Assembly (NCBI GenBank): GCA_964567555.1
Contig: CAZMNA010000001.1
Location: 88,911-152,910 of the forward strand
Origin: an uncultured Candidatus Saccharibacteria bacterium
GTDB taxonomy: Bacteria > Patescibacteriota > Saccharimonadia > Saccharimonadales > UBA10212
DNA length: 64,000 nucleotides
Direction of reading: 5' to 3'
Shown here: in pieces, positions 2,320 through 57,260 of the stretch
How the letters are laid out: the number at the start of each line of letters is the position of its first letter
Position numbering within the stretch: the first letter of the stretch is position 1
Notes under the pieces: generated by a model
Databases searched by the model: none
What the model was told of the DNA's origin: nothing
The model's input: only the letters and a program-made list of their open reading frames with translations
Translations under genes and position numbers: made by a program

Positions 2320-2871
2320 ATGGTTCAGCCAGAAGGTTTATCTAAAAAAGCCGAGCTTGTGCGAGTAACTGCAGCAGTTGGCATGATTGCTGCTGGGATG
2401 TTCAGTGGTGGACTTGGTGGCTATGAGATAACAAAATCAGATAGCGATTCTGCTCGCAGCGATGCTCGAGCCGCCGCAGCTAGTGATGCTGGCTGCCTAG
2501 CCCTAGAAAATCATTTAAAACAAAGTGGTAGTGGCCGTGTCGTCCGAATTGACATTTTAACCCACCGTCAAGTCCTAGACTGCGGCCTGCAAGGTTTGGT
2601 GGATTTCGATATTGGTCCTTTGCCGCTGAGCGGTAAGGTTACTGACCTAGTCGTAGAATTACCAAGTCCTGATCAACTACAACAAGACCTCCTACACCAA
2701 ACTCACAGCGCTGAAGATCCTAGAACAGGAGAAGAAGTAGCTGGCATTATTGTTGGGGGTCTGATTGGTGGTGCTGTTGGCGCGAAAGTAGGTGAGCTAA
2801 TATCCGCACTTGATGATAGGCGCCGCCGCAAAAATAATCGGAAAAGATCGTCAACCATAGCAAGCGCTTAA
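2320..2871 (+). CDS. hypothetical 2-TM glycine-zipper membrane protein (orf183)
   Basis: SD GGAGG. TM-like VTAAVGMIAAGMFSGGLGG and VAGIIVGGLIGGAVGAKVG, and a basic tail RRRRKNNRKR. No family recognised. Confidence 0.55.
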   Translation: MVQPEGLSKKAELVRVTAAVGMIAAGMFSGGLGGYEITKSDSDSARSDARAAAASDAGCLALENHLKQSGSGRVVRIDILTHRQVLDCGLQGLVDFDIGPLPLSGKVTDLVVELPSPDQLQQDLLHQTHSAEDPRTGEEVAGIIVGGLIGGAVGAKVGELISALDDRRRRKNNRKRSSTIASA

Positions 2872-2911: not shown

Positions 2912-2947
2912 ATAGGTCGTGGTTGTTATAATTACCCCTGTTACGTG

Positions 2948-3023
2948 GCAGGGTAGCTCAGTTGGTTAGAGCACAGGACTCATAAGCCTGGGGTCGCGAG
3001 TTCAAATCTCGCCCCTGCTACCA
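2948..3023 (+). tRNA. tRNA-Met (CAU), elongator-like
   Basis: 76-nt cloverleaf with anticodon loop CTCATAA, T-arm GCGAG/TTCAAAT/CTCGC and encoded CCA. Resembles E. coli elongator tRNA-Met from memory. One A:G mismatch at 31:39. Confidence 0.85.
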
Positions 3024-3236: not shown

Positions 3237-3253
3237 TGGCCGCTTTTATGCTT
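3237..3253 (+). promoter_or_regulatory. degenerate fifth copy of the GCTTATGCTTGCA element
   Basis: TGGCCGCTTTTATGCTT versus TGGCCGCTTATGCTT at 55147-55160. Lies about 125 nt upstream of the RRM gene. Confidence 0.3.
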
Positions 3254-3690: not shown

Positions 3691-4266
3691 CTAGGCTACT
3701 TCCTCTTCGCCCAAAATAGCATGTAACTTTGCCAGTCCGCGGGAAGCATGAGACTTAACTGTACCTAGCTTAATCCTAAGTTCGGCTGCAATTTGTTCAT
3801 AGGTCTTTCCCTCAAAATAAAACTTAAAAATAACAACCTGCTCCTGTTCAGAAAGCTTTTGGATTGCTTCCAAAATACGTTCTCTTTGTTCCCGTACGAT
3901 AACCTTCTTCTCAGGACTGTCTTCTCTACTTAGTATAGACAGGAGGTGGGGTTCGGGGTCAGTACTTATCTCATGGCTTCTTCTACCACGATGTTTTTTC
4001 AACTCGTCTTTTGATGTATTAATTAAAATGCTGTGCAGCCACGTCAACGGATGTGCTTCACCTCTAAATTGCCTGGATCTCTCCATAGCCTTCACGACGG
4101 TAGAATTCACATAATCATCTGGCTCTATTATGCTTCCGTGGGAACGCCTATCGCGTAAAATCTTCCGCGCCGCGTAAGCCGTCAAGGCCACTAGTGCCGT
4201 ACCTTCAAGTGCGTGTACCACCAGCTCTTTGTTGTCATCTGGCTTTGGCTCTTCATGTTTCGGCAT
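3691..4266 (-). CDS. sigma-70 family (ECF-like) RNA polymerase sigma factor
   Basis: Region 4 HTH KTYEQIAAELRIKLGTVKSHASRGLAKL, and region-2-like HPLTWLHSILINT. Track start 4311 is TTG. ATG at 4266 follows TATACT by 6 nt. Confidence 0.75.
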   Translation of the reverse strand: MPKHEEPKPDDNKELVVHALEGTALVALTAYAARKILRDRRSHGSIIEPDDYVNSTVVKAMERSRQFRGEAHPLTWLHSILINTSKDELKKHRGRRSHEISTDPEPHLLSILSREDSPEKKVIVREQRERILEAIQKLSEQEQVVIFKFYFEGKTYEQIAAELRIKLGTVKSHASRGLAKLHAILGEEEVA

Positions 4267-4341
4267 AATCGCAGTATAACGCTCGTTAAAGGACTTATCT
4301 AGATATAGCAATCTATCAGCTTACTCTACCGTAGCAGGCTA

Positions 4342-4359
4342 GAATTTAGCTGTTATGAG
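4342..4359 (+). promoter_or_regulatory. GAATTTAG-type intergenic motif, site 1
   Basis: GAATTTAGCTGTTATGAG in the sortase/sigma intergenic spacer. Related to sites at 52663, 55129 and 55459. Confidence 0.3.
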
Positions 4360-4448
4360 AATAAGTTGACCGAGTGGGAGCTCACGCTAAAAGTAGCCGC
4401 GGATCCCCGCCGCCTCGTCATATTCTCCCCTCCGGAGTAAACCACCGT

Positions 4449-4973
4449 CTAGTGCTGATGTGGCTTTACTAGTACCGCCCTTGCAGTCATCCAGTCGTCA
4501 CTTGTGTAGCGGGGCCAGCAGCAGCGGAAGAAGATTGTCTCAATATGGGGATGCTTCTTGCTATATCTCTCAATGTACCCGTTGCCTTTCCACTGTGGAT
4601 GTGGTTCAGGAGTCCGGACAAACCGGTACGTATACCACACACCGTTCCACCTGATCTTTGCGACGTAGCCTGGCTTGATCAGGTAGAGGTTATAGAACGG
4701 GCCGTGGGCGCCATAGCCTGGTACAGGCGTGACGTCGTGGCCATCGATCACCATCGTCTTGCTCATTCCGGGCCGAGCGTGGAAATTGTTATCCCAGACT
4801 GGGCCGAGCATCTCATGAGCGTCCGTATCCGTGCGGAGGATTTGCTTGTTGAAAATCCCCAGAGCCGGGATGGTCAGGAGAGTCCGGTTTCGCGGCTGGG
4901 CTGCGATACCGCTAGGCGCCGTAAGAACCATCGATGCCAGCACGGCAACGACGAGCAACATTACTCTTTTCAT
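4449..4973 (-). CDS. sortase family transpeptidase
   Basis: Signal/anchor MKRVMLLVVAVLASM after SD AAGAGG. LTIPALGI, VIDGHD, YNLYLIKPGYVAKI and a Cys-containing RCCWP segment match the sortase beta-barrel layout. Confidence 0.7.
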   Translation of the reverse strand: MKRVMLLVVAVLASMVLTAPSGIAAQPRNRTLLTIPALGIFNKQILRTDTDAHEMLGPVWDNNFHARPGMSKTMVIDGHDVTPVPGYGAHGPFYNLYLIKPGYVAKIRWNGVWYTYRFVRTPEPHPQWKGNGYIERYSKKHPHIETIFFRCCWPRYTSDDWMTARAVLVKPHQH

Positions 4974-5233
4974 ACCTCTTTCCATGCTGTGTATCACCCT
5001 TTCTGAGTAAATTATAATGTGGAACACTACGAGCCGAGAAGCCTAAAAGTTCTAGACATCTCAAAACTTTAACGACTAAACTGTAACACTAATATTAAAA
5101 TCTGTCAAGAGGAGTATCGCCGCTCTCCGTCTGTTATTCAGTCATGGTAGCCGAAGTTCATTCGAATTGGAACGCTATCTTGGCAGAACTGGTTAGGTGG
5201 AAGACCCTATGCAGTGAGAGTACTCAGAGCCAG

Positions 5234-5917
5234 CTATTCTTCCTCGGCCTCTGACTCATCCGTAACTACTCTAATGGTGTCTCTTAAAAACACACCTGGT
5301 GCACGGCCAACATGAAGCTGAGCAGACGCACGATGAACGGTACACCTGTCTATCAAAACGGCTCTATCTTTTGGTGCTTTTTCCGAAGTGGTTGCGAACC
5401 ATTTGGATATGCCACCACTCAACGCTGGAACTGGACCAACATAAATTCGAGTAGGATTACCTCGGTGATTAACTATAACGGCTTCAGCATCGCCTAAAAA
5501 ACGGTCACGATGTGTCGTACCCGGGGGCGAAAAGGGTAATAGATTTCCTGTCATAGTATGTAAAATCGAAGCTGCTGAACGAACTTTGCCGACTCTATAA
5601 AGCAGCGCATGCGACAAAGCAGTGTCTGGGGATACTTCTCTATAATCCCTATAAAGGCCGTCAATTTGCGTGACTGCCATCTGTAAATTAGCAGTCAGAT
5701 TATCGGCGTTAACTTCGCCAGTTATATCTTCTGCAGAAGAAGAGGCACTTCGCCCAACAACTAACTTACCGACGGTGGCTACTGTGAGCTCACCGCCTGG
5801 GGAGATGCGAGTTTCGTATTTTACAGAGGCTTGCATCGACTGGTCGAATTCAGCCGAGTGCCAATTTGGTTGTATTTCACCTAAGTCATAGAAATGTGAA
5901 GAAACTACTTTTACCAT
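5234..5917 (-). CDS. hypothetical protein (orphan O1, 227 aa)
   Basis: Long ORF with an acidic C-terminus and no TM or signal peptide. Preceded by a TTGCAA-16-TAATAT promoter inside the repeated element. Confidence 0.6.
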   Translation of the reverse strand: MVKVVSSHFYDLGEIQPNWHSAEFDQSMQASVKYETRISPGGELTVATVGKLVVGRSASSSAEDITGEVNADNLTANLQMAVTQIDGLYRDYREVSPDTALSHALLYRVGKVRSAASILHTMTGNLLPFSPPGTTHRDRFLGDAEAVIVNHRGNPTRIYVGPVPALSGGISKWFATTSEKAPKDRAVLIDRCTVHRASAQLHVGRAPGVFLRDTIRVVTDESEAEEE

Positions 5918-5950
5918 TTGTGATTAAAATATTAAACCGAAATCATTAAC

Positions 5951-5979
5951 TTGCAAGCATAAGCCAAACAAAAAATTCC
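5951..5979 (-). promoter_or_regulatory. recurrent promoter-like element, copy 1
   Basis: Minus-strand GGAATTTTTTGTTTGGCTTATGCTTGCAA. 24 nt identical to 6604-6627. TTGCAA lies 16 nt from TAATAT (5929-5934). Confidence 0.6.
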
Positions 5980-5989
5980 CTGTTAATGT

Positions 5990-6559
5990 TTAGGCGGTAG
6001 TACTTGAACTTACTGCATCAGCAATATACGACTCAGGAAAACGCCTTCTCTGAAGCTCTTCAGCAGTCATGGTTTTTACGGCCTCGAGATAGCTTTCCAC
6101 TGACCACTGAAAGTTATTTAACTCTCGGCGCATTCGGTCTCCGAAGGGGGATGTCTCGGGTCTAGCAGCAGGATCTTCTATATCTGTACGTTTTAACTTT
6201 TCGTGATGTCTTGCAAGACCATCATTAAAATCATAGGTAAACCATTCTGACGATAACTCATCTTGCCAATGCGATTTAACAATCCCGAACCTTAGATGCA
6301 AACCAATGTCCTTACCATCAACTTGATAGGGTATCGGTACAACCGGCGTAAATGCTTCAATATCGTCTCCGCGCTGACGCTTTTCGGGTATGAGCTGTAG
6401 AAGAGTCTCAAAAATTAAGTCATACTTTTGCTCTGAGCTCAATCTTTCGAAGTCTACAGGCGTTTCAGGTTCTTCTTCAAGAATTGTACTTAACTTATCT
6501 TGCTCTGAATGAACAACAGTTCTTTGTTTCTGCACTCTAACCACTTGCTCTGGTTTCAC
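5990..6559 (-). CDS. hypothetical protein (orphan O2, 189 aa)
   Basis: Track ORF 5990..6745 runs through the promoter element and the tRNA fragment. GTG at 6559 has SD AAGGAG 6 nt upstream. Acidic and soluble. Confidence 0.55.
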   Translation of the reverse strand: MKPEQVVRVQKQRTVVHSEQDKLSTILEEEPETPVDFERLSSEQKYDLIFETLLQLIPEKRQRGDDIEAFTPVVPIPYQVDGKDIGLHLRFGIVKSHWQDELSSEWFTYDFNDGLARHHEKLKRTDIEDPAARPETSPFGDRMRRELNNFQWSVESYLEAVKTMTAEELQRRRFPESYIADAVSSSTTA

Positions 6560-6603
6560 ATTAAACTCCTTAACTACTATTACTCTAGAACTTGTTTTTA
6601 GAT

Positions 6604-6627
6604 TTGCAAGCATAAGCCAAACAAAAA
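6604..6627 (-). promoter_or_regulatory. recurrent promoter-like element, copy 2
   Basis: Minus-strand TTTTTGTTTGGCTTATGCTTGCAA, then 16 nt and TAGAGT. Confidence 0.6.
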
Positions 6628-6646
6628 GACCCCTTTTTACGGAGGT
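6621..6646 (-). terminator. terminator hairpin downstream of the tRNA-fragment copy
   Basis: Minus-strand GACCTC-cgtaaaa-GGGGTC followed by TTTTTGTTT. The G:U pair only works on the minus strand. Confidence 0.55.
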
Positions 6647-6661
6647 CAAAGTGCTTATGCT

Positions 6662-6682
6662 TGGTAGCGGGGGCAGGATTTG
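6662..6682 (-). repeat. 21-nt duplicate of the tRNA-fMet 3' end (T-loop to CCA), att-like
   Basis: CAAATCCTGCCCCCGCTACCA (minus) is identical to 6873-6893. No matching T-stem 5' strand, so this is not a second tRNA. Confidence 0.9.
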
Positions 6683-6838
6683 GTCACAGATATTTTTCCG
6701 TGCGGGAAAATTCCGCGACCCCGCCTCAGCTCGGGTGGCTGCCAAGCCACGCCGGGCTTCCGGCCGTCCGAACTGCCGCCAGGCAGTTCTCCCCTCCGAC
6801 CTCTACTCGGTCGCAGATCAAACATTGCCATGTGACCA
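6681..6838 (-). ncRNA. candidate structured RNA / integration remnant
   Basis: 8-bp closing stem TGGTCACA (6831-6838) / TGTGACCA (6681-6688). Two hairpins with identical TGGC loops (6735-6750, 6771-6788). GC-rich. The only ORFs are track artefacts. Confidence 0.3.
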
Positions 6839-6840
6839 CG

Positions 6841-6864
6841 AAAAAAGCCCCAGCAAGCTGGGAC
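6841..6864 (-). terminator. rho-independent terminator after tRNA-fMet
   Basis: Minus-strand CCCAG-cttg-CTGGG followed by GCTTTTTT. Confidence 0.7.
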
Positions 6865-6872
6865 CCTTTTCG

Positions 6873-6947
6873 TGGTAGCGGGGGCAGGATTTGCACCTGC
6901 GACCTCGTGGTTATGAGCCACGCGAGCTACTACTGCTCCACCCCGCG
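6873..6947 (-). tRNA. initiator tRNA-fMet (CAU)
   Basis: CGCGGGGTGGAGCAG... start typical of initiator tRNA, with a C1:U72 mismatch. Anticodon loop CTCATAA and encoded CCA. Coordinates cross-checked against track ORF 6655..6921. Confidence 0.9.
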
Positions 6948-7512: not shown

Positions 7513-7588
7513 GGGGGAGTAGCTCAGGGGTTAGAGCAGGCGGCTCATAACCGCTTGGTCGCAGGTTCAAATCCTGCCTCCCCCACCA
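7513..7588 (+). tRNA. tRNA with CAU anticodon, tRNA-Ile2 (lysidine)-like
   Basis: Cloverleaf GGGGGAG.../CTCCCCC-A-CCA. GAGCAGGCGGCTCATAACCGCTTGGTCGC closely resembles E. coli ileX from memory. The Ile2 versus Met assignment is inference. Confidence 0.8.
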
Positions 7589-49092: not shown

Positions 49093-49152
49093 CTCGTTCC
49101 TTAGAGTTAATTTTTTACTGTAATGCCCGATTAGGGTTGTATAATTATGCTC

Positions 49153-55128: not shown

Positions 55129-55163
55129 GAATTTAGATTTTTGAGTGGCCGCTTATGCTTGCA
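55129..55163 (+). promoter_or_regulatory. composite element: GAATTTAG site 3 plus GCTTATGCTTGCA copy 3
   Basis: GAATTTAGATTTTTGAGTGGCCGCTTATGCTTGCA. Coordinates cross-checked against track ORF 55111..55449. Confidence 0.55.
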
Positions 55164-55170
55164 GAAAGCT

Positions 55171-55449
55171 ATGCCAGAACTTACATTGATGGTGATGCAT
55201 CTATTTGAATTAAGAGGCCGACAGATATTTGTTGAATCTGGCCAGTTATATGAAAGTAGTTCTTGGGACGCCGCTCCGCTGGGGGAGGAAATTTCTGATG
55301 AAGTTCTGGTGGTCCGGGGTGTGATATATACTACTCGTGAAAAATCAATCCGGGTGCAAAAACCGTTTGCCTATGTTGATGAGGAGACGGATTCTGCGCT
55401 CGGCCTTTGGCTCGACGAAACAGTGTACCGGCCGGTTGCTGAAGAATAG
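55171..55449 (+). CDS. hypothetical protein (orphan O3, 92 aa)
   Basis: The track start 55111 (TTG) reads through the regulatory element. First ATG is at 55171. Acidic. Confidence 0.5.
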   Translation: MPELTLMVMHLFELRGRQIFVESGQLYESSSWDAAPLGEEISDEVLVVRGVIYTTREKSIRVQKPFAYVDEETDSALGLWLDETVYRPVAEE

Positions 55450-55490: not shown

Positions 55491-55625
55491 ATGGCTGAAC
55501 CATCCTCAGAATACCCGGCGGATCTTTTTGCCCGCGATGACGCAGAGACAAGAGCCCGGAAAATTGAAGCTGTAAGACAAGAACTGATAGACGCTGGCGA
55601 AAGCCCTGAAGACATTGCTGGCTAG
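55491..55625 (+). CDS. 44-aa acidic micro-protein
   Basis: ATG 7 nt after TATAAT (55478-55483). MAEPSSEYPADLFARDDAETRARKIEAVRQELIDAGESPEDIAG. GAATCTAAATTTCTGAG motif site 4 at 55459-55475. Confidence 0.45.
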   Translation: MAEPSSEYPADLFARDDAETRARKIEAVRQELIDAGESPEDIAG

Positions 55626-55708
55626 CTAGGGCAGCATCAGGACTGACTCCCACCCGTAGATAATTTATTAATTTCATATCTAATAATCACCCGGTTGTTT
55701 TGAGCGTC

Positions 55709-55721
55709 GCTTATGCTTGCA
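55709..55721 (+). promoter_or_regulatory. GCTTATGCTTGCA element, copy 4
   Basis: TTTTGAGCGTCGCTTATGCTTGCAAGAAGC parallels copy 3, TTTTGAGTGGCCGCTTATGCTTGCAGAAAGC. Confidence 0.55.
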
Positions 55722-55751
55722 AGAAGCACCAGCCTATCCCAAAATATTGAT

Positions 55752-56078
55752 ATGGGAATTGAGAGATTTTACCCAGAAGGCAGAAAACCACTTTATCCTG
55801 AAGCTACCGGTGCATACCTAGAAGATATCCCGAGAGAGGACAGCTTTGACATTGCTGCCGAGCTGGCCAAACACCCCTCCAGAGCCGCGGCATATGTAAA
55901 TGAGACGTTGGCGGCCAATCGATATACTCTGCAAGAGCTAGAGGCCAAAAGACGCGCCATCGCGTGGCGCGCATCAGTTTTAAGTTCGTTGAGCCCGGAA
56001 TTACTCGCGTCTCTACCGCCCGAAGTCCAAGCAGAGGTCAAAGAATGGGCCAGACGTCTACGAGAAGAAACCGCCTAA
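55752..56078 (+). CDS. hypothetical protein (orphan O4, 108 aa)
   Basis: The track ATG 55713 lies inside the element. ATG 55752 follows CAAAAT by 6 nt. Helical and Ala/Glu/Arg-rich. Confidence 0.5.
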   Translation: MGIERFYPEGRKPLYPEATGAYLEDIPREDSFDIAAELAKHPSRAAAYVNETLAANRYTLQELEAKRRAIAWRASVLSSLSPELLASLPPEVQAEVKEWARRLREETA

Positions 56079-56114: not shown

Positions 56115-57260
56115 TTACGCATCAACCTGCATTGGTAAGAAATTGTTTTGATCCAGTTGCATTACTATGCCAAGGGTTAAGGCGTTTCTGTTTAGTCTTA
56201 GCGTATACCTCCGACTCCCCCCCACAACAGGACGAATAAGACCTTGCTCTCTGAGCTTGCGTATTGCCTTAGAAATATTAACGTGGGAAACGTCTTTGGG
56301 GAATAAGTCTCGAAAATCACTTGCCTGGACAACACCTTTTTTGTTGGCTATCCCAAGCATCCCGAATTCCAGAGGGTTGATGCGTTTCTTATCTAATGCA
56401 TATTCTAAGGCGGGAACAACTATTCTATCGCGCGTAAATTCTTCATCCAGCAACCGAGTAACGTTATCTGCTTCGGTCTTTAAGCCTTGTAGCATATATT
56501 CGGACCACAAGAGCAGCCCATCTTTTGTGCCCTTGTCTGCATCAGCCAACATCGAGTAATATCCCTTGCGATTACTCCCAAATAGCGCAGTTGAGTTAAG
56601 CAATCGTCGACCTTCGGCATCAATAAAACCTTGTTGGGTAAGCATCGCATAGGTGAGTAAGCGAACAACTCGGCCATTCCCATTACCAAAGGGGTGGATC
56701 CAGGTAAAGCGATGATGAGCCACAGCGTCCTTTAGTAGATCGAAGTGAGATTCAACACTCGAATTAATAAATTCAATTAGCTCATTCATGAGGTCGTTAA
56801 CGTCTGATGCGGGTGGTGGTACATGGCTTGATCCCGATATGTACCGAGGTTCTATGCGATAAGCGCCCGATCTTTTGTCGCCCTCCTTAACAAGGCCTTC
56901 CACTGTGATGCGATGAAGTTGAAGGATGAAGCCCCGATCGATCCTAAAGCCTTTTGTTTGTTTTTCAATAAAACGGATTCCGTTCTCAAGATTAATAATT
57001 TCTTGAATTTCCTCCGCGGGATTTTTAGCCCCATCATCTTCGCGGACAGCCTCAACAAAGCTAGCCACAGTCGTATGATTTCCTTCAATACGAGCCGATG
57101 CGATGCTTTCGATTGTGTGAAAAATATTTTTCAGCTCAAAAAACAGCCAAGGTTTAGTTGTCCCAATTATTGGACGGTTTCTGAAGGTCTGGAGCTCCAC
57201 TACGCACTTGGTAATCGTGGAGTCAAAATCAGGCTTTGGTATGTATAATTTCGTACTCAT
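56115..57260 (-). CDS. fic: Fic family protein (class II, N-terminal inhibitory helix) with C-terminal wHTH
   Basis: Fic motif HPFGNGNGRVVR, inhibitory motif SARIEG upstream in the same chain, and a C-terminal HTH-like ISKAIRKLREQGLI. Confidence 0.9.
   Translation of the reverse strand: MSTKLYIPKPDFDSTITKCVVELQTFRNRPIIGTTKPWLFFELKNIFHTIESIASARIEGNHTTVASFVEAVREDDGAKNPAEEIQEIINLENGIRFIEKQTKGFRIDRGFILQLHRITVEGLVKEGDKRSGAYRIEPRYISGSSHVPPPASDVNDLMNELIEFINSSVESHFDLLKDAVAHHRFTWIHPFGNGNGRVVRLLTYAMLTQQGFIDAEGRRLLNSTALFGSNRKGYYSMLADADKGTKDGLLLWSEYMLQGLKTEADNVTRLLDEEFTRDRIVVPALEYALDKKRINPLEFGMLGIANKKGVVQASDFRDLFPKDVSHVNISKAIRKLREQGLIRPVVGGSRRYTLRLNRNALTLGIVMQLDQNNFLPMQVDA

Follow-up and report, generated by a model that had tools for sequence, protein, structure and literature searches.

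Genomic islands that enter tRNA genes, leave displaced fragments of the tRNA 3' end behind and build up by successive insertions are well established (Islander, PMC4383910; tycheposons, bioRxiv 10.1101/2020.12.28.424599), and promoters giving rise to leaderless mRNAs have been described in Actinobacteria and Deinococcus (PMC3898074) and modelled in GeneMarkS-2 (PMC6028130). Features reminiscent of both were found in a 64,000-nucleotide stretch of DNA from an uncultured Candidatus Saccharibacteria bacterium (hereafter the window, to which all coordinates refer unless another locus is named). The analysis concerned the 13-mer GCTTATGCTTGCA, which is present in the window in exactly four copies when both strands are read and precedes four different genes, designated O1–O4. 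Judged from the sequence, this 13-mer probably represents the upstream half, conserved in sequence, of sigma-70-type promoters of a class specific to Saccharibacteria; such promoters would be portable and serve accessory genes.

Saccharibacteria and other bacteria of the candidate phyla radiation (CPR) live as ultra-small epibionts and have genomes of about 1 Mb. To our knowledge, almost nothing is known about the organisation of transcription in these organisms, and a search of the literature for Saccharibacteria promoters or for the motif sequence returned nothing. The unit size, the common junction element and the common promoter of the insertions presented below were likewise not found described in the literature searched.

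The 13-mer and its promoter geometry

The four copies of the 13-mer, the hexamers located downstream of them and the genes that follow are listed below, together with a degenerate relative.

5952–5964, minus strand: motif copy 1, GCTTATGCTTGCA; -35 hexamer TTGCAA at 5951–5956, T-tract and linker TTTTTTGTTTG at 5965–5975
5929–5934, minus strand: -10-like hexamer TAATAT of O1, spacer of 16 nt from the -35 hexamer, 11 nt before the O1 ATG
5234–5917, minus strand: O1, 227 amino acids (aa), predicted Fe(II)/2-oxoglutarate dioxygenase-like fold
6605–6617, minus strand: motif copy 2, GCTTATGCTTGCA; -35 hexamer TTGCAA at 6604–6609
6582–6587, minus strand: -10-like hexamer TAGAGT of O2, spacer of 16 nt, followed by the Shine-Dalgarno sequence AAGGAG at 6567–6572 and GTG at 6559
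5990–6559, minus strand: O2, 189 aa, GTG start at 6559 with the AAGGAG Shine-Dalgarno sequence
55151–55163, plus strand: motif copy 3, GCTTATGCTTGCA; -35 hexamer TTGCAG at 55159–55164, T-tract at 55138–55142
55182–55187, plus strand: -10-like hexamer TACATT of O3, spacer of 17 nt, 7 nt before the ATG at 55195
55195–55449, plus strand: O3, 84 aa, counted from the ATG compatible with a leaderless mRNA
55709–55721, plus strand: motif copy 4, GCTTATGCTTGCA; -35 hexamer TTGCAA at 55717–55722, TTTTG at 55698–55702
55740–55745, plus strand: -10-like hexamer CAAAAT of O4, spacer of 17 nt, 6 nt before the ATG at 55752
55752–56078, plus strand: O4, 108 aa, ATG start
3237–3253, plus strand: degenerate motif-like sequence TGGCCGCTTTTATGCTT, 127 nt upstream of the RRM gene, with a 2-nt insertion and TTAAC replacing TTGCA

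Shuffling with preservation of dinucleotide composition gave on average 0.69 matches to a 12-mer with up to one mismatch allowed, and none of the 100 shuffles reached four. No one-mismatch variant of the 11-mer TTATGCTTGCA was present in the window. All four copies are intergenic and each of them points to the next gene. The initial annotation had reported an identical 24-mer, TTTTTGTTTGGCTTATGCTTGCAA, upstream of O1 and O2, and it was confirmed at 5951–5974 and 6604–6627, comprising both minus-strand copies. The relatives reported before O3 and O4 are also present, but the quoted strings, which include the base following GCA, end at 55164 and 55722 and not at 55163 and 55721. Overall, the coordinates given initially hold with a deviation of one base at most. 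Since the first two positions of the 13-mer are variable (GC, GG, GT, AT or AC), the constrained core corresponds to TTATGCTTGCA. The same DNA was present in several rhizosphere metagenome assemblies.

The -35/-10 arrangement of sigma-70 promoters, that is TTGnnn, a spacer of 16–18 bp and a hexamer with A at the second and T at the sixth position (A2/T6), was found at all four window copies. The A/T-rich hexamer that had been noticed downstream of TTGCA(A/G) lies at the distance reported for it, with spacers of 16, 16, 17 and 17 nt. Each of the four O promoters matches the consensus at 8 of 12 positions, which explains why a simple consensus scan did not call them; the same scan did call the terminator abutting motif copy 2. 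Other genes of the window have canonical TTGACA-N17-TAnnnT or extended -10 (TGnTATAAT) promoters. Upstream of many of them TATAAT, often preceded by TGn, is located 6–8 nt before the start codon with no Shine-Dalgarno sequence, as for the genes starting at 49147, 50308, 51858 (minus strand), 53064 and 55491. Such positioning suggests that leaderless mRNAs are common, and leaderless translation widespread, in the source organism. The same layout, with the start codon 5–9 nt after the -10 box and no Shine-Dalgarno sequence, was observed for O3 (7 nt) and O4 (6 nt). The most likely start of O3 is the ATG at 55195, as the in-frame ATG codons at 55171 and 55189 fit the promoter geometry less well. 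A T-tract is found 4–7 nt upstream of the block even in cases in which no hairpin precedes it (O1, O3 and O4), and therefore it seems to be a part of the promoter and not merely the tail of a terminator.

All sites with up to one mismatch to TTATGCTTGCA in Saccharibacteria-like loci (designated here by L numbers) were pooled, which gave 47 sites, 43 of them non-coding. An A2/T6 -10 box was located 16–18 nt after TTGCAN at 37 of the 43 non-coding sites and a start codon 5–9 nt after this box at 23 of them. When 21 sites were stacked without gaps in a logo, conservation downstream of the motif was confined to A at +32 (17/21) and T at +36 (15/21), which correspond to A(-11) and T(-7) in a -10 box placed at a 17-nt spacer.

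To establish the taxonomic range of the element, the GTDB species representatives, one genome per species, were scanned with the pattern TTTTG-N4-7-GCTTATGCTTGCA and the taxon of each locus was read from the record title. The numbers from this and the other public scan refer to the matches listed or to small samples and not to copy numbers per genome. At least 117 loci were obtained, with 18 Saccharibacteria/Patescibacteria sites among the matches listed. Within these listed matches, an ATG at +29 to +31 opening a reading frame of at least 40 codons was detected at 11 of 18 clade sites and at 1 of 96 sites from other taxa (Fisher p = 5.6e-10). Matches inside a reading frame, again among those listed, constituted 2 of the 18 clade sites (both in mraZ) and 61 of the 96 sites from other taxa, the remaining 16 scored clade sites being intergenic, and the stricter TAnnnT box was present at 9/18 and 8/96 sites, respectively. 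The promoter geometry is absent from the matches listed for other taxa, and the promoter block is restricted to the clade. All related sequences came from Candidatus Saccharibacteria or Saccharimonadales records.

An orthologous promoter was available for O4, which has one homologue, of 72% identity, in L175. The region upstream of the latter consists of CCTTGTGCTTGCAA, 17 nt, CAAGAT, 6 nt and ATG. It shares with the O4 promoter the block, the spacing, the A/T positions of the -10 box and a leaderless start, whereas neither the spacer nor the more distant upstream DNA is related. This footprint, which is not biased by the search pattern, argues for a functional constraint acting on the block. 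The earlier proposal that the element combines a -35 box with a conserved upstream extension is therefore supported, by the pooled sites, by the lack of the geometry in other taxa and by the retention of the block between diverged flanks.

The proteins encoded downstream had been presented as four unrelated orphans. They indeed share no similarity with one another, but O4 has the homologue mentioned above and O1 is represented by 12 homologue clusters with 29–46% identity. The structure predicted for O1 is confident (predicted local distance difference test, pLDDT, of 84) and its best structural matches are Fe(II)/2-oxoglutarate dioxygenases, namely BelL, HrmJ, IDO and a BsmA homologue. Of the H-x-D...H triad conserved in the 12-member family, H136 and D138 do not vary at all and H195 hardly varies. 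No Pfam match was found for O2 and O3 and no significant one for O4, and O2 had no homologue outside its own species. The 21 proteins encoded downstream of exact motif copies show no mutual similarity, with the exception of one orthologous pair. The majority of the downstream proteins have no Pfam domain and the rest belong to HAD, SDR, GNAT, NUDIX, MazF-like and XRE-HTH types.

The homologues of O1 in L172–L174 carry different, ordinary promoters. The RRM gene is preceded by a good copy in L116 (GCTTATGCTCGCA, 17 nt, TATAAT), by ordinary promoters in L032 and L150, and in the window only by a decayed copy. As homologues of the same gene use ordinary promoters elsewhere, the promoter appears to be generic and portable. 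The degenerate copy reported at 3237–3253 upstream of the RRM gene does exist, but it lacks a convincing -35/-10 pair and is probably not a working member of the class.

Taken together, the promoter would be composed of a T-tract at about -53 to -47, which is often the U-tract of a preceding terminator and is plausibly UP-element-like, a linker of 4–7 nt, and the block (G/A)N-TTATGC-TTGCA-N, the last six bases of which would constitute a non-consensus -35 hexamer. An unconstrained spacer of 16–18 nt and a weak TAnnnT -10 box would follow. Transcription is expected to start at this site, and in about half of the cases, with the start codon 5–9 nt past the -10 box, a leaderless mRNA would be produced. 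Because both hexamers are sub-consensus, the invariant eight bases upstream of the -35 hexamer probably provide an extra contact for initiation, and their partner could be an activator conserved in the clade or the RNA polymerase itself. Not tied to any gene, the block may act as a general-purpose expression signal for small, mutually unrelated accessory genes.

Several observations were made in the neighborhood of O3 and O4 and at another locus. An acidic 44-aa open reading frame (ORF) at 55491–55626 (plus strand), situated between O3 and O4, has its own TATAAT 7 nt before the ATG and no motif, and it was called as a gene in several independent assemblies. A gene encoding a Fic-domain protein (56115–57260, minus strand) converges on O4. 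All metagenome contigs bearing O4 were shorter than 4 kb, in comparison with up to 315 kb for the O1 region, which hints at strain variability around O3/O4. In another Saccharibacteria genome (L123), a one-mismatch motif, GCCTATGCTTGCA, at 2416–2428 (minus strand), followed by 17 nt and TAAGAT, is placed between the 23S and 5S rRNA genes, about 100 nt ahead of the latter.

Insertions behind tRNA and tmRNA genes

Motif copies 1 and 2 lie in a region with the following additional features.

6618–6647, minus strand: intrinsic-terminator hairpin GACCTCCGTAAAAAGGGGTC with the T-run TTTTTGTTTG, which abuts motif copy 2
6653–6662, plus strand: inverted partial copy GCTTATGCTT
6653–6663, minus strand: left arm CAAGCATAAGC, an inverted repeat of the 5' part of the motif, opening the conserved trailer AGCATAAGCACTTTG
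6662–6682, minus strand: displaced 21-nt direct repeat of the tRNA-Met 3' end
6873–6947, minus strand: intact tRNA-Met (CAT) gene, the 3' end of which is repeated at 6662–6682
5144–5203, minus strand: junction element of about 58 nt at the 3' end of the O2–O1 insertion, ending in the tRNA-Met-like GGCTACCA

In many genomes the motif directly follows a tRNA or transfer-messenger RNA (tmRNA) gene and its terminator. Such placement was observed behind tRNA-Val (L049), tRNA-Pro (L099), tRNA-Met (L116 and L151), tRNA-Asn (L076 and L157) and tRNA-Asp (L159 and L162), and behind tmRNA in L033 and L126. The full module has the order CCA, (AGC)ATAAGCACTTT, hairpin, T-run and motif, and a metagenome scan with the pattern ATAAGCACTTT-N12-40-TTATGCTTGCA gave 17 loci among the matches listed, about 14 of them genuine. 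The outer arms of the module, AAGCATAAGC and GCTTATGCTT, are inverted repeats and are paired in most of the predicted folds, and the trailer AGCATAAGCACTTTG comes after CCA in many Saccharibacteria tRNA flanks. Window copy 2 (6604–6663) is a full module, located beside the 21-nt repeat of the tRNA-Met 3' end. The inverted partial copy that had been noted next to this repeat is real, with GCTTATGCTT at 6653–6662 of the plus strand, but CTTATGCTTG is found at 6654–6663.

On the minus strand, the stretch 6682–5144 comprises in succession the tRNA 3' repeat, the terminator-promoter module, O2, a T-run with the motif, O1 and the junction element, an order in which O2 and O1 appear to form one insertion at tRNA-Met. 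The junction element is 90% identical to positions 456–515 of L051. It is present in six copies in the 3.5-kb L149 array and closes units in L051, L100 and L150/L158. Its pattern is ..CCATCT..GTTC..CCAATT..(C/T)ACCA, with a tRNA- or tmRNA-like ...ACCA end, and in L149 and L100 the conservation extends out to about 125 nt, including a UUCG-type hairpin. The junction element is a candidate attachment site for a recombinase. A crude regular-expression screen for ORFs with the HxxRH...Y signature of tyrosine recombinases detected none in the window or in the fetched loci of 1–14 kb.

An intact tRNA or tmRNA gene accompanied by a displaced repeat of its 3' end, the hallmark used by Islander, was found in the window, in L157, L112, L160 and L165, and in the comparison of L100 with L033. 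In L157, the module comes behind the tRNA-Asn gene; beyond it lie one gene, the decayed remnant of a tRNA-like sequence and, with a different flank, an 18-nt stretch that repeats the tRNA 3' end perfectly. The module and the gene are therefore contained in an insertion. In L160, the block and one gene are located between an intact tRNA gene and a displaced 3' repeat. The comparison of L100 with L033 revealed an insertion of 620 bp at the 3' end of the tmRNA gene; it carries one gene, and TCCACCA is duplicated. Arrays of single-gene units were observed in L112 (five copies), L156 (four), L051 (three), L160 and L149. The suggestion that the promoter travels with inserted genes, made initially from the window alone, is directly supported by these loci, in particular by L157 and L160, and in the window by the position of O2 and O1 between the tRNA-Met 3' repeat and a junction element known from other arrays.

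Judged from this handful of loci, the block repeatedly takes up the end nearest the tRNA gene in single-gene units, which probably build up through insertion behind tRNA and tmRNA genes, at their 3' ends. It forms there a compact terminator-plus-promoter module, the terminator being the one needed by the restored tRNA gene. O2 and O1 represent one such insertion at tRNA-Met, and O3 and O4 have the same promoter elsewhere.

A further arrangement was observed at four tRNA genes. The same layout of an intact tRNA gene, a terminator, a gene-less spacer of 120–190 nt and a 16–24-nt repeat of the tRNA 3' end is shared by four genomes: the window (6662–6947, minus strand), L112 (1667–1922), L160 (161–404) and L165 (926–1165), at tRNA-Met in the window and at tRNA-Gln, tRNA-Asn and tRNA-Arg in the others. 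The spacers of the four genomes could not be aligned beyond the terminator. In the window, an unusually stable fold is predicted for the spacer with the repeat (-104 kcal/mol, z = -4.9), for which Rfam has no matching family. Such a segment could be a miniature insertion or a small RNA.

Further observations concern the surroundings of the O2–O1 insertion. The last 30–50 nt of the glutamate dehydrogenase gene, including the stop codon (2217–2266), are repeated 649 nt downstream (2866–2915), after a 183-aa ORF (2320–2871) with no function assigned and just before the tRNA-Met promoter; the region 2217–2915 looks like another single-gene insertion with a flanking direct repeat. Three tRNA-Met (CAT) genes are located within 4.7 kb (2947–3023, 6873–6947 and 7513–7588). 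Three tRNA-Met genes in the same DivIC-tRNA-Met neighborhood are also present in L151, and in a relative (L167) the tRNA-Met gene between DivIC and the sigma factor gene is inverted. The genes for an extracytoplasmic function (ECF)-like sigma factor and a divergent sortase-like protein (3691–5027, minus strand) lie directly beyond the O2–O1 insertion, and in a relative the sigma factor gene adjoins one encoding a LysM protein.

Alternative explanations

Several points weigh against a portable promoter class. Promoter activity is deduced from the geometry of the sites. The leaderless picture fits half of the window copies, as 11 nt separate the O1 start from its -10 box and a leader with a Shine-Dalgarno sequence precedes O2. 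O3 and O4 are devoid of cassette hallmarks in the window, with neither a tRNA repeat nor a junction element. The enrichment in the clade sets match counts against a Saccharibacteria share of such a collection that is our own estimate (well under 1% of bases). Both public scans demanded exact parts of the motif, so part of the invariance across genomes follows from the search itself, and variation free of this bias comes from a few array copies and one orthologue only. The TTTTG requirement biased the matches towards terminators and hence towards tRNA flanks. Finally, copies from the same locus show about 100% similarity over the whole block, yet within 2 nt of its GCA the similarity is down to background; this drop after TTGCAN fits a functional boundary and a recombination breakpoint alike.

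The alternative that survives best treats the genes behind the block as a co-regulated regulon responding to one signal, with the block serving as an operator, as an activator site or as the extended -35 element of an alternative sigma factor. It differs from the portable promoter class only by dedicated regulation and the two are not mutually exclusive; such a regulon is possible, but rather doubtful. The 8–11 bases beside or overlapping the -35 hexamer are invariant and the hexamers are weak (8/12), which is typical of activator-dependent or alternative-sigma promoters, and the block is kept in the orthologous promoter of L175. Moreover, the gene of the ECF-like sigma factor (3691–4311) is close by on the same strand, downstream of O2, O1 and the sortase gene. 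This factor, however, has a single homologue cluster, with 50% identity, among 5.8 billion proteins, and the relative possessing the homologue has no O1, O2 or sortase gene, so the factor cannot explain an element distributed across the clade. The -10 box has the housekeeping A2/T6 signature and not the ECF type, the site is a non-palindromic single half-site, and membership does not depend on gene family, the cargo being functionally heterogeneous.

The insertions could also be extended to an integron-like system of Saccharibacteria, in which single-gene cassettes would be mobilised in trans and the promoter would be completed on insertion. The junction of about 60–125 nt, mimicking a tRNA or tmRNA 3' end, would be the attachment site, fused to the terminator-promoter module, and cassettes would stack behind tRNA and tmRNA genes by site-specific insertion. 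The loss of similarity after TTGCAN would then mark the true cassette boundary: the -35 half would belong to the site, the -10 box and the leaderless ATG would arrive with the cargo, and the promoter would be complete only once the cassette is inserted. This scheme is speculative and considered unlikely.

Even less probable is that the 13-mer serves mainly as a recombination site (a recombinase arm or cassette boundary), with the exchange taking place right after TTGCAN and promoter activity being secondary or absent. It would account for the abrupt loss of similarity within 2 nt after GCA, for the position of the block just 4 nt past a tRNA-like CCA end (L051 at 1352, L149 at 869) and at unit junctions in arrays, and for the inverted copy AAGCATAAGC paired across the hairpin in many modules. 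A recombination site would not, however, impose TAnnnT at 16–18 nt or a start codon 5–9 nt further on. Where insertions could be mapped, their breakpoints fall at the tRNA or tmRNA 3' end instead of the motif, the left arm is missing from O1, O3, O4 and most other copies, and neither the window nor the fetched loci yielded a recombinase gene in the crude screen described above. On direct reading, the attC cores and the 6–8-bp central region of dif are absent as well.

Saccharibacteria are naturally competent, and the Neisseria DNA uptake sequence (DUS) and the Haemophilus uptake signal sequence (USS) are exact 10–12-mers often arranged as inverted pairs in terminators, which speaks for an uptake signal. 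A role of the block in DNA uptake or in structure, in the latter case as the 3' strand of a longer terminator or an RNA stem, is nevertheless very improbable despite the outer stem AAGCATAAGC/GCTTATGCTT in the minimum-free-energy fold of most full modules, since the left arm accompanies only about a quarter of the copies, the motif lies past the U-tract and therefore outside the terminated transcript, and the copies are rare (4 in 64 kb), gene-oriented and phased with the -10 box and the start codon.

A number of specific identities were examined and rejected. The neighbouring ECF-like sigma factor was discarded as the reader of the motif because of its one homologue cluster and the housekeeping-like -10 box. 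For the same reasons the sites do not have the features that define an ECF or other alternative-sigma promoter, the -10 box being TAnnnT-like. For a sigma-54 promoter (TGGCACG-N4-TTGCW) the spacing was wrong, with GG-N9-GC in O1 and O2, GG-N12-GC in O3 and no GG in O4 and most other copies, and a start codon at +30 does not fit a transcription start about 12 nt after GC. Concerning a phage or single-subunit polymerase promoter, a scan of viral contigs gave 12 matches, all coding or due to chance and none with the promoter geometry. In the search for known RNA families, the motif was not covered by any Rfam match; matches at the gathering threshold were confined to tRNAs, and the weak sub-threshold ones fell on or beside the tRNA gene. 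A short peptide from the ATG inside the motif (MLA...) would meet a stop within 4–13 codons in several copies, and only two of the four window copies have this ATG in the frame of the downstream ORF.

As to operators and exchange sites, some hairpins in tRNA flanks resemble the CIRCE/HrcA operator (TAAGCACTT-N9-(T/A)AGTGCTTA), but most modules have no 3' partner and the context is wrong. In a dif/Xer site, 11-bp arms flank a centre of 6–8 bp, whereas the arms found here are 25–45 nt apart and share with dif only GCATAA/TTATG. The RYYYAAC/GTTRRRY cores of an integron attC are absent; the arms are AAGCATAAGC and GCTTATGCTT, and the GTTATGC variants fail at the second R. A DNA uptake sequence was dismissed by density and orientation, with four copies in 64 kb, all intergenic and gene-oriented.

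Significance and comparison with known systems

A promoter class defined by sequence and spread across the clade would offer a concrete hypothesis, namely a conserved contact just upstream of the -35 hexamer, and a ready-made part for the genetic tools under development in these organisms. The one-gene insertions behind tRNA and tmRNA genes point to a way in which reduced genomes may gain accessory genes and express them at once. Many of these genes encode lineage-restricted proteins with no function assigned. The junction element beside the promoter suggests a specific recombination system.

Among short repeated elements, the Correia elements of Neisseria, REPIN and bacterial interspersed mosaic elements (BIME) resemble the module in being short and intergenic, with terminal inverted repeats, a hairpin or terminator and an outward -35 hexamer. 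In the present case no target-site duplication was seen, most copies are devoid of the left inverted repeat and the copy number per genome appears low. With integron cassettes the units have in common the arrays of small, mostly co-oriented single ORFs without assigned function and a conserved, imperfectly palindromic junction that starts near the stop codon. In contrast to integrons, RYYYAAC/GTTRRRY cores are lacking, no IntI gene (by the crude screen of the window and the 1–14-kb loci) or attI site was found, the arrays are anchored at tRNA or tmRNA genes, and each unit has its own promoter instead of the single Pc.

The geometry agrees with that of activator-dependent or UP-assisted sigma-70 promoters (class II CRP/FNR, the pho-box of PhoB, rrnB P1) in the sub-consensus hexamers 16–18 bp apart, the conserved element at -35 and the T-tract at the distal UP subsite. 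Here, however, TTGCA is joined to an 8-mer, GCTTATGC, that contains GC and has no palindromic symmetry, and the element is conserved across a candidate phylum and not within a regulon of related functions. The leaderless promoters of Actinobacteria and Deinococcus are alike in having the -10 box 5–9 nt before the start codon and no Shine-Dalgarno sequence (23/43 sites here), but they usually combine a strong -10 box with no conserved -35 hexamer, whereas in the promoters presented here the -35 side is invariant and the -10 box is weak.

Islander islands and tycheposons share with these insertions the intact tRNA or tmRNA gene with a displaced 3' repeat, the outward displacement of older insertions by new ones, and the partial tRNAs scattered in arrays of cargo with mostly unassigned function. 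The tyrosine integrase characteristic of Islander islands has no counterpart seen in cis, as the inserts are 0.2–1 kb long and carry either no gene or one unrelated gene. Unlike those islands, the units of Saccharibacteria have a common junction element of about 60–125 nt and a common terminator-promoter module.

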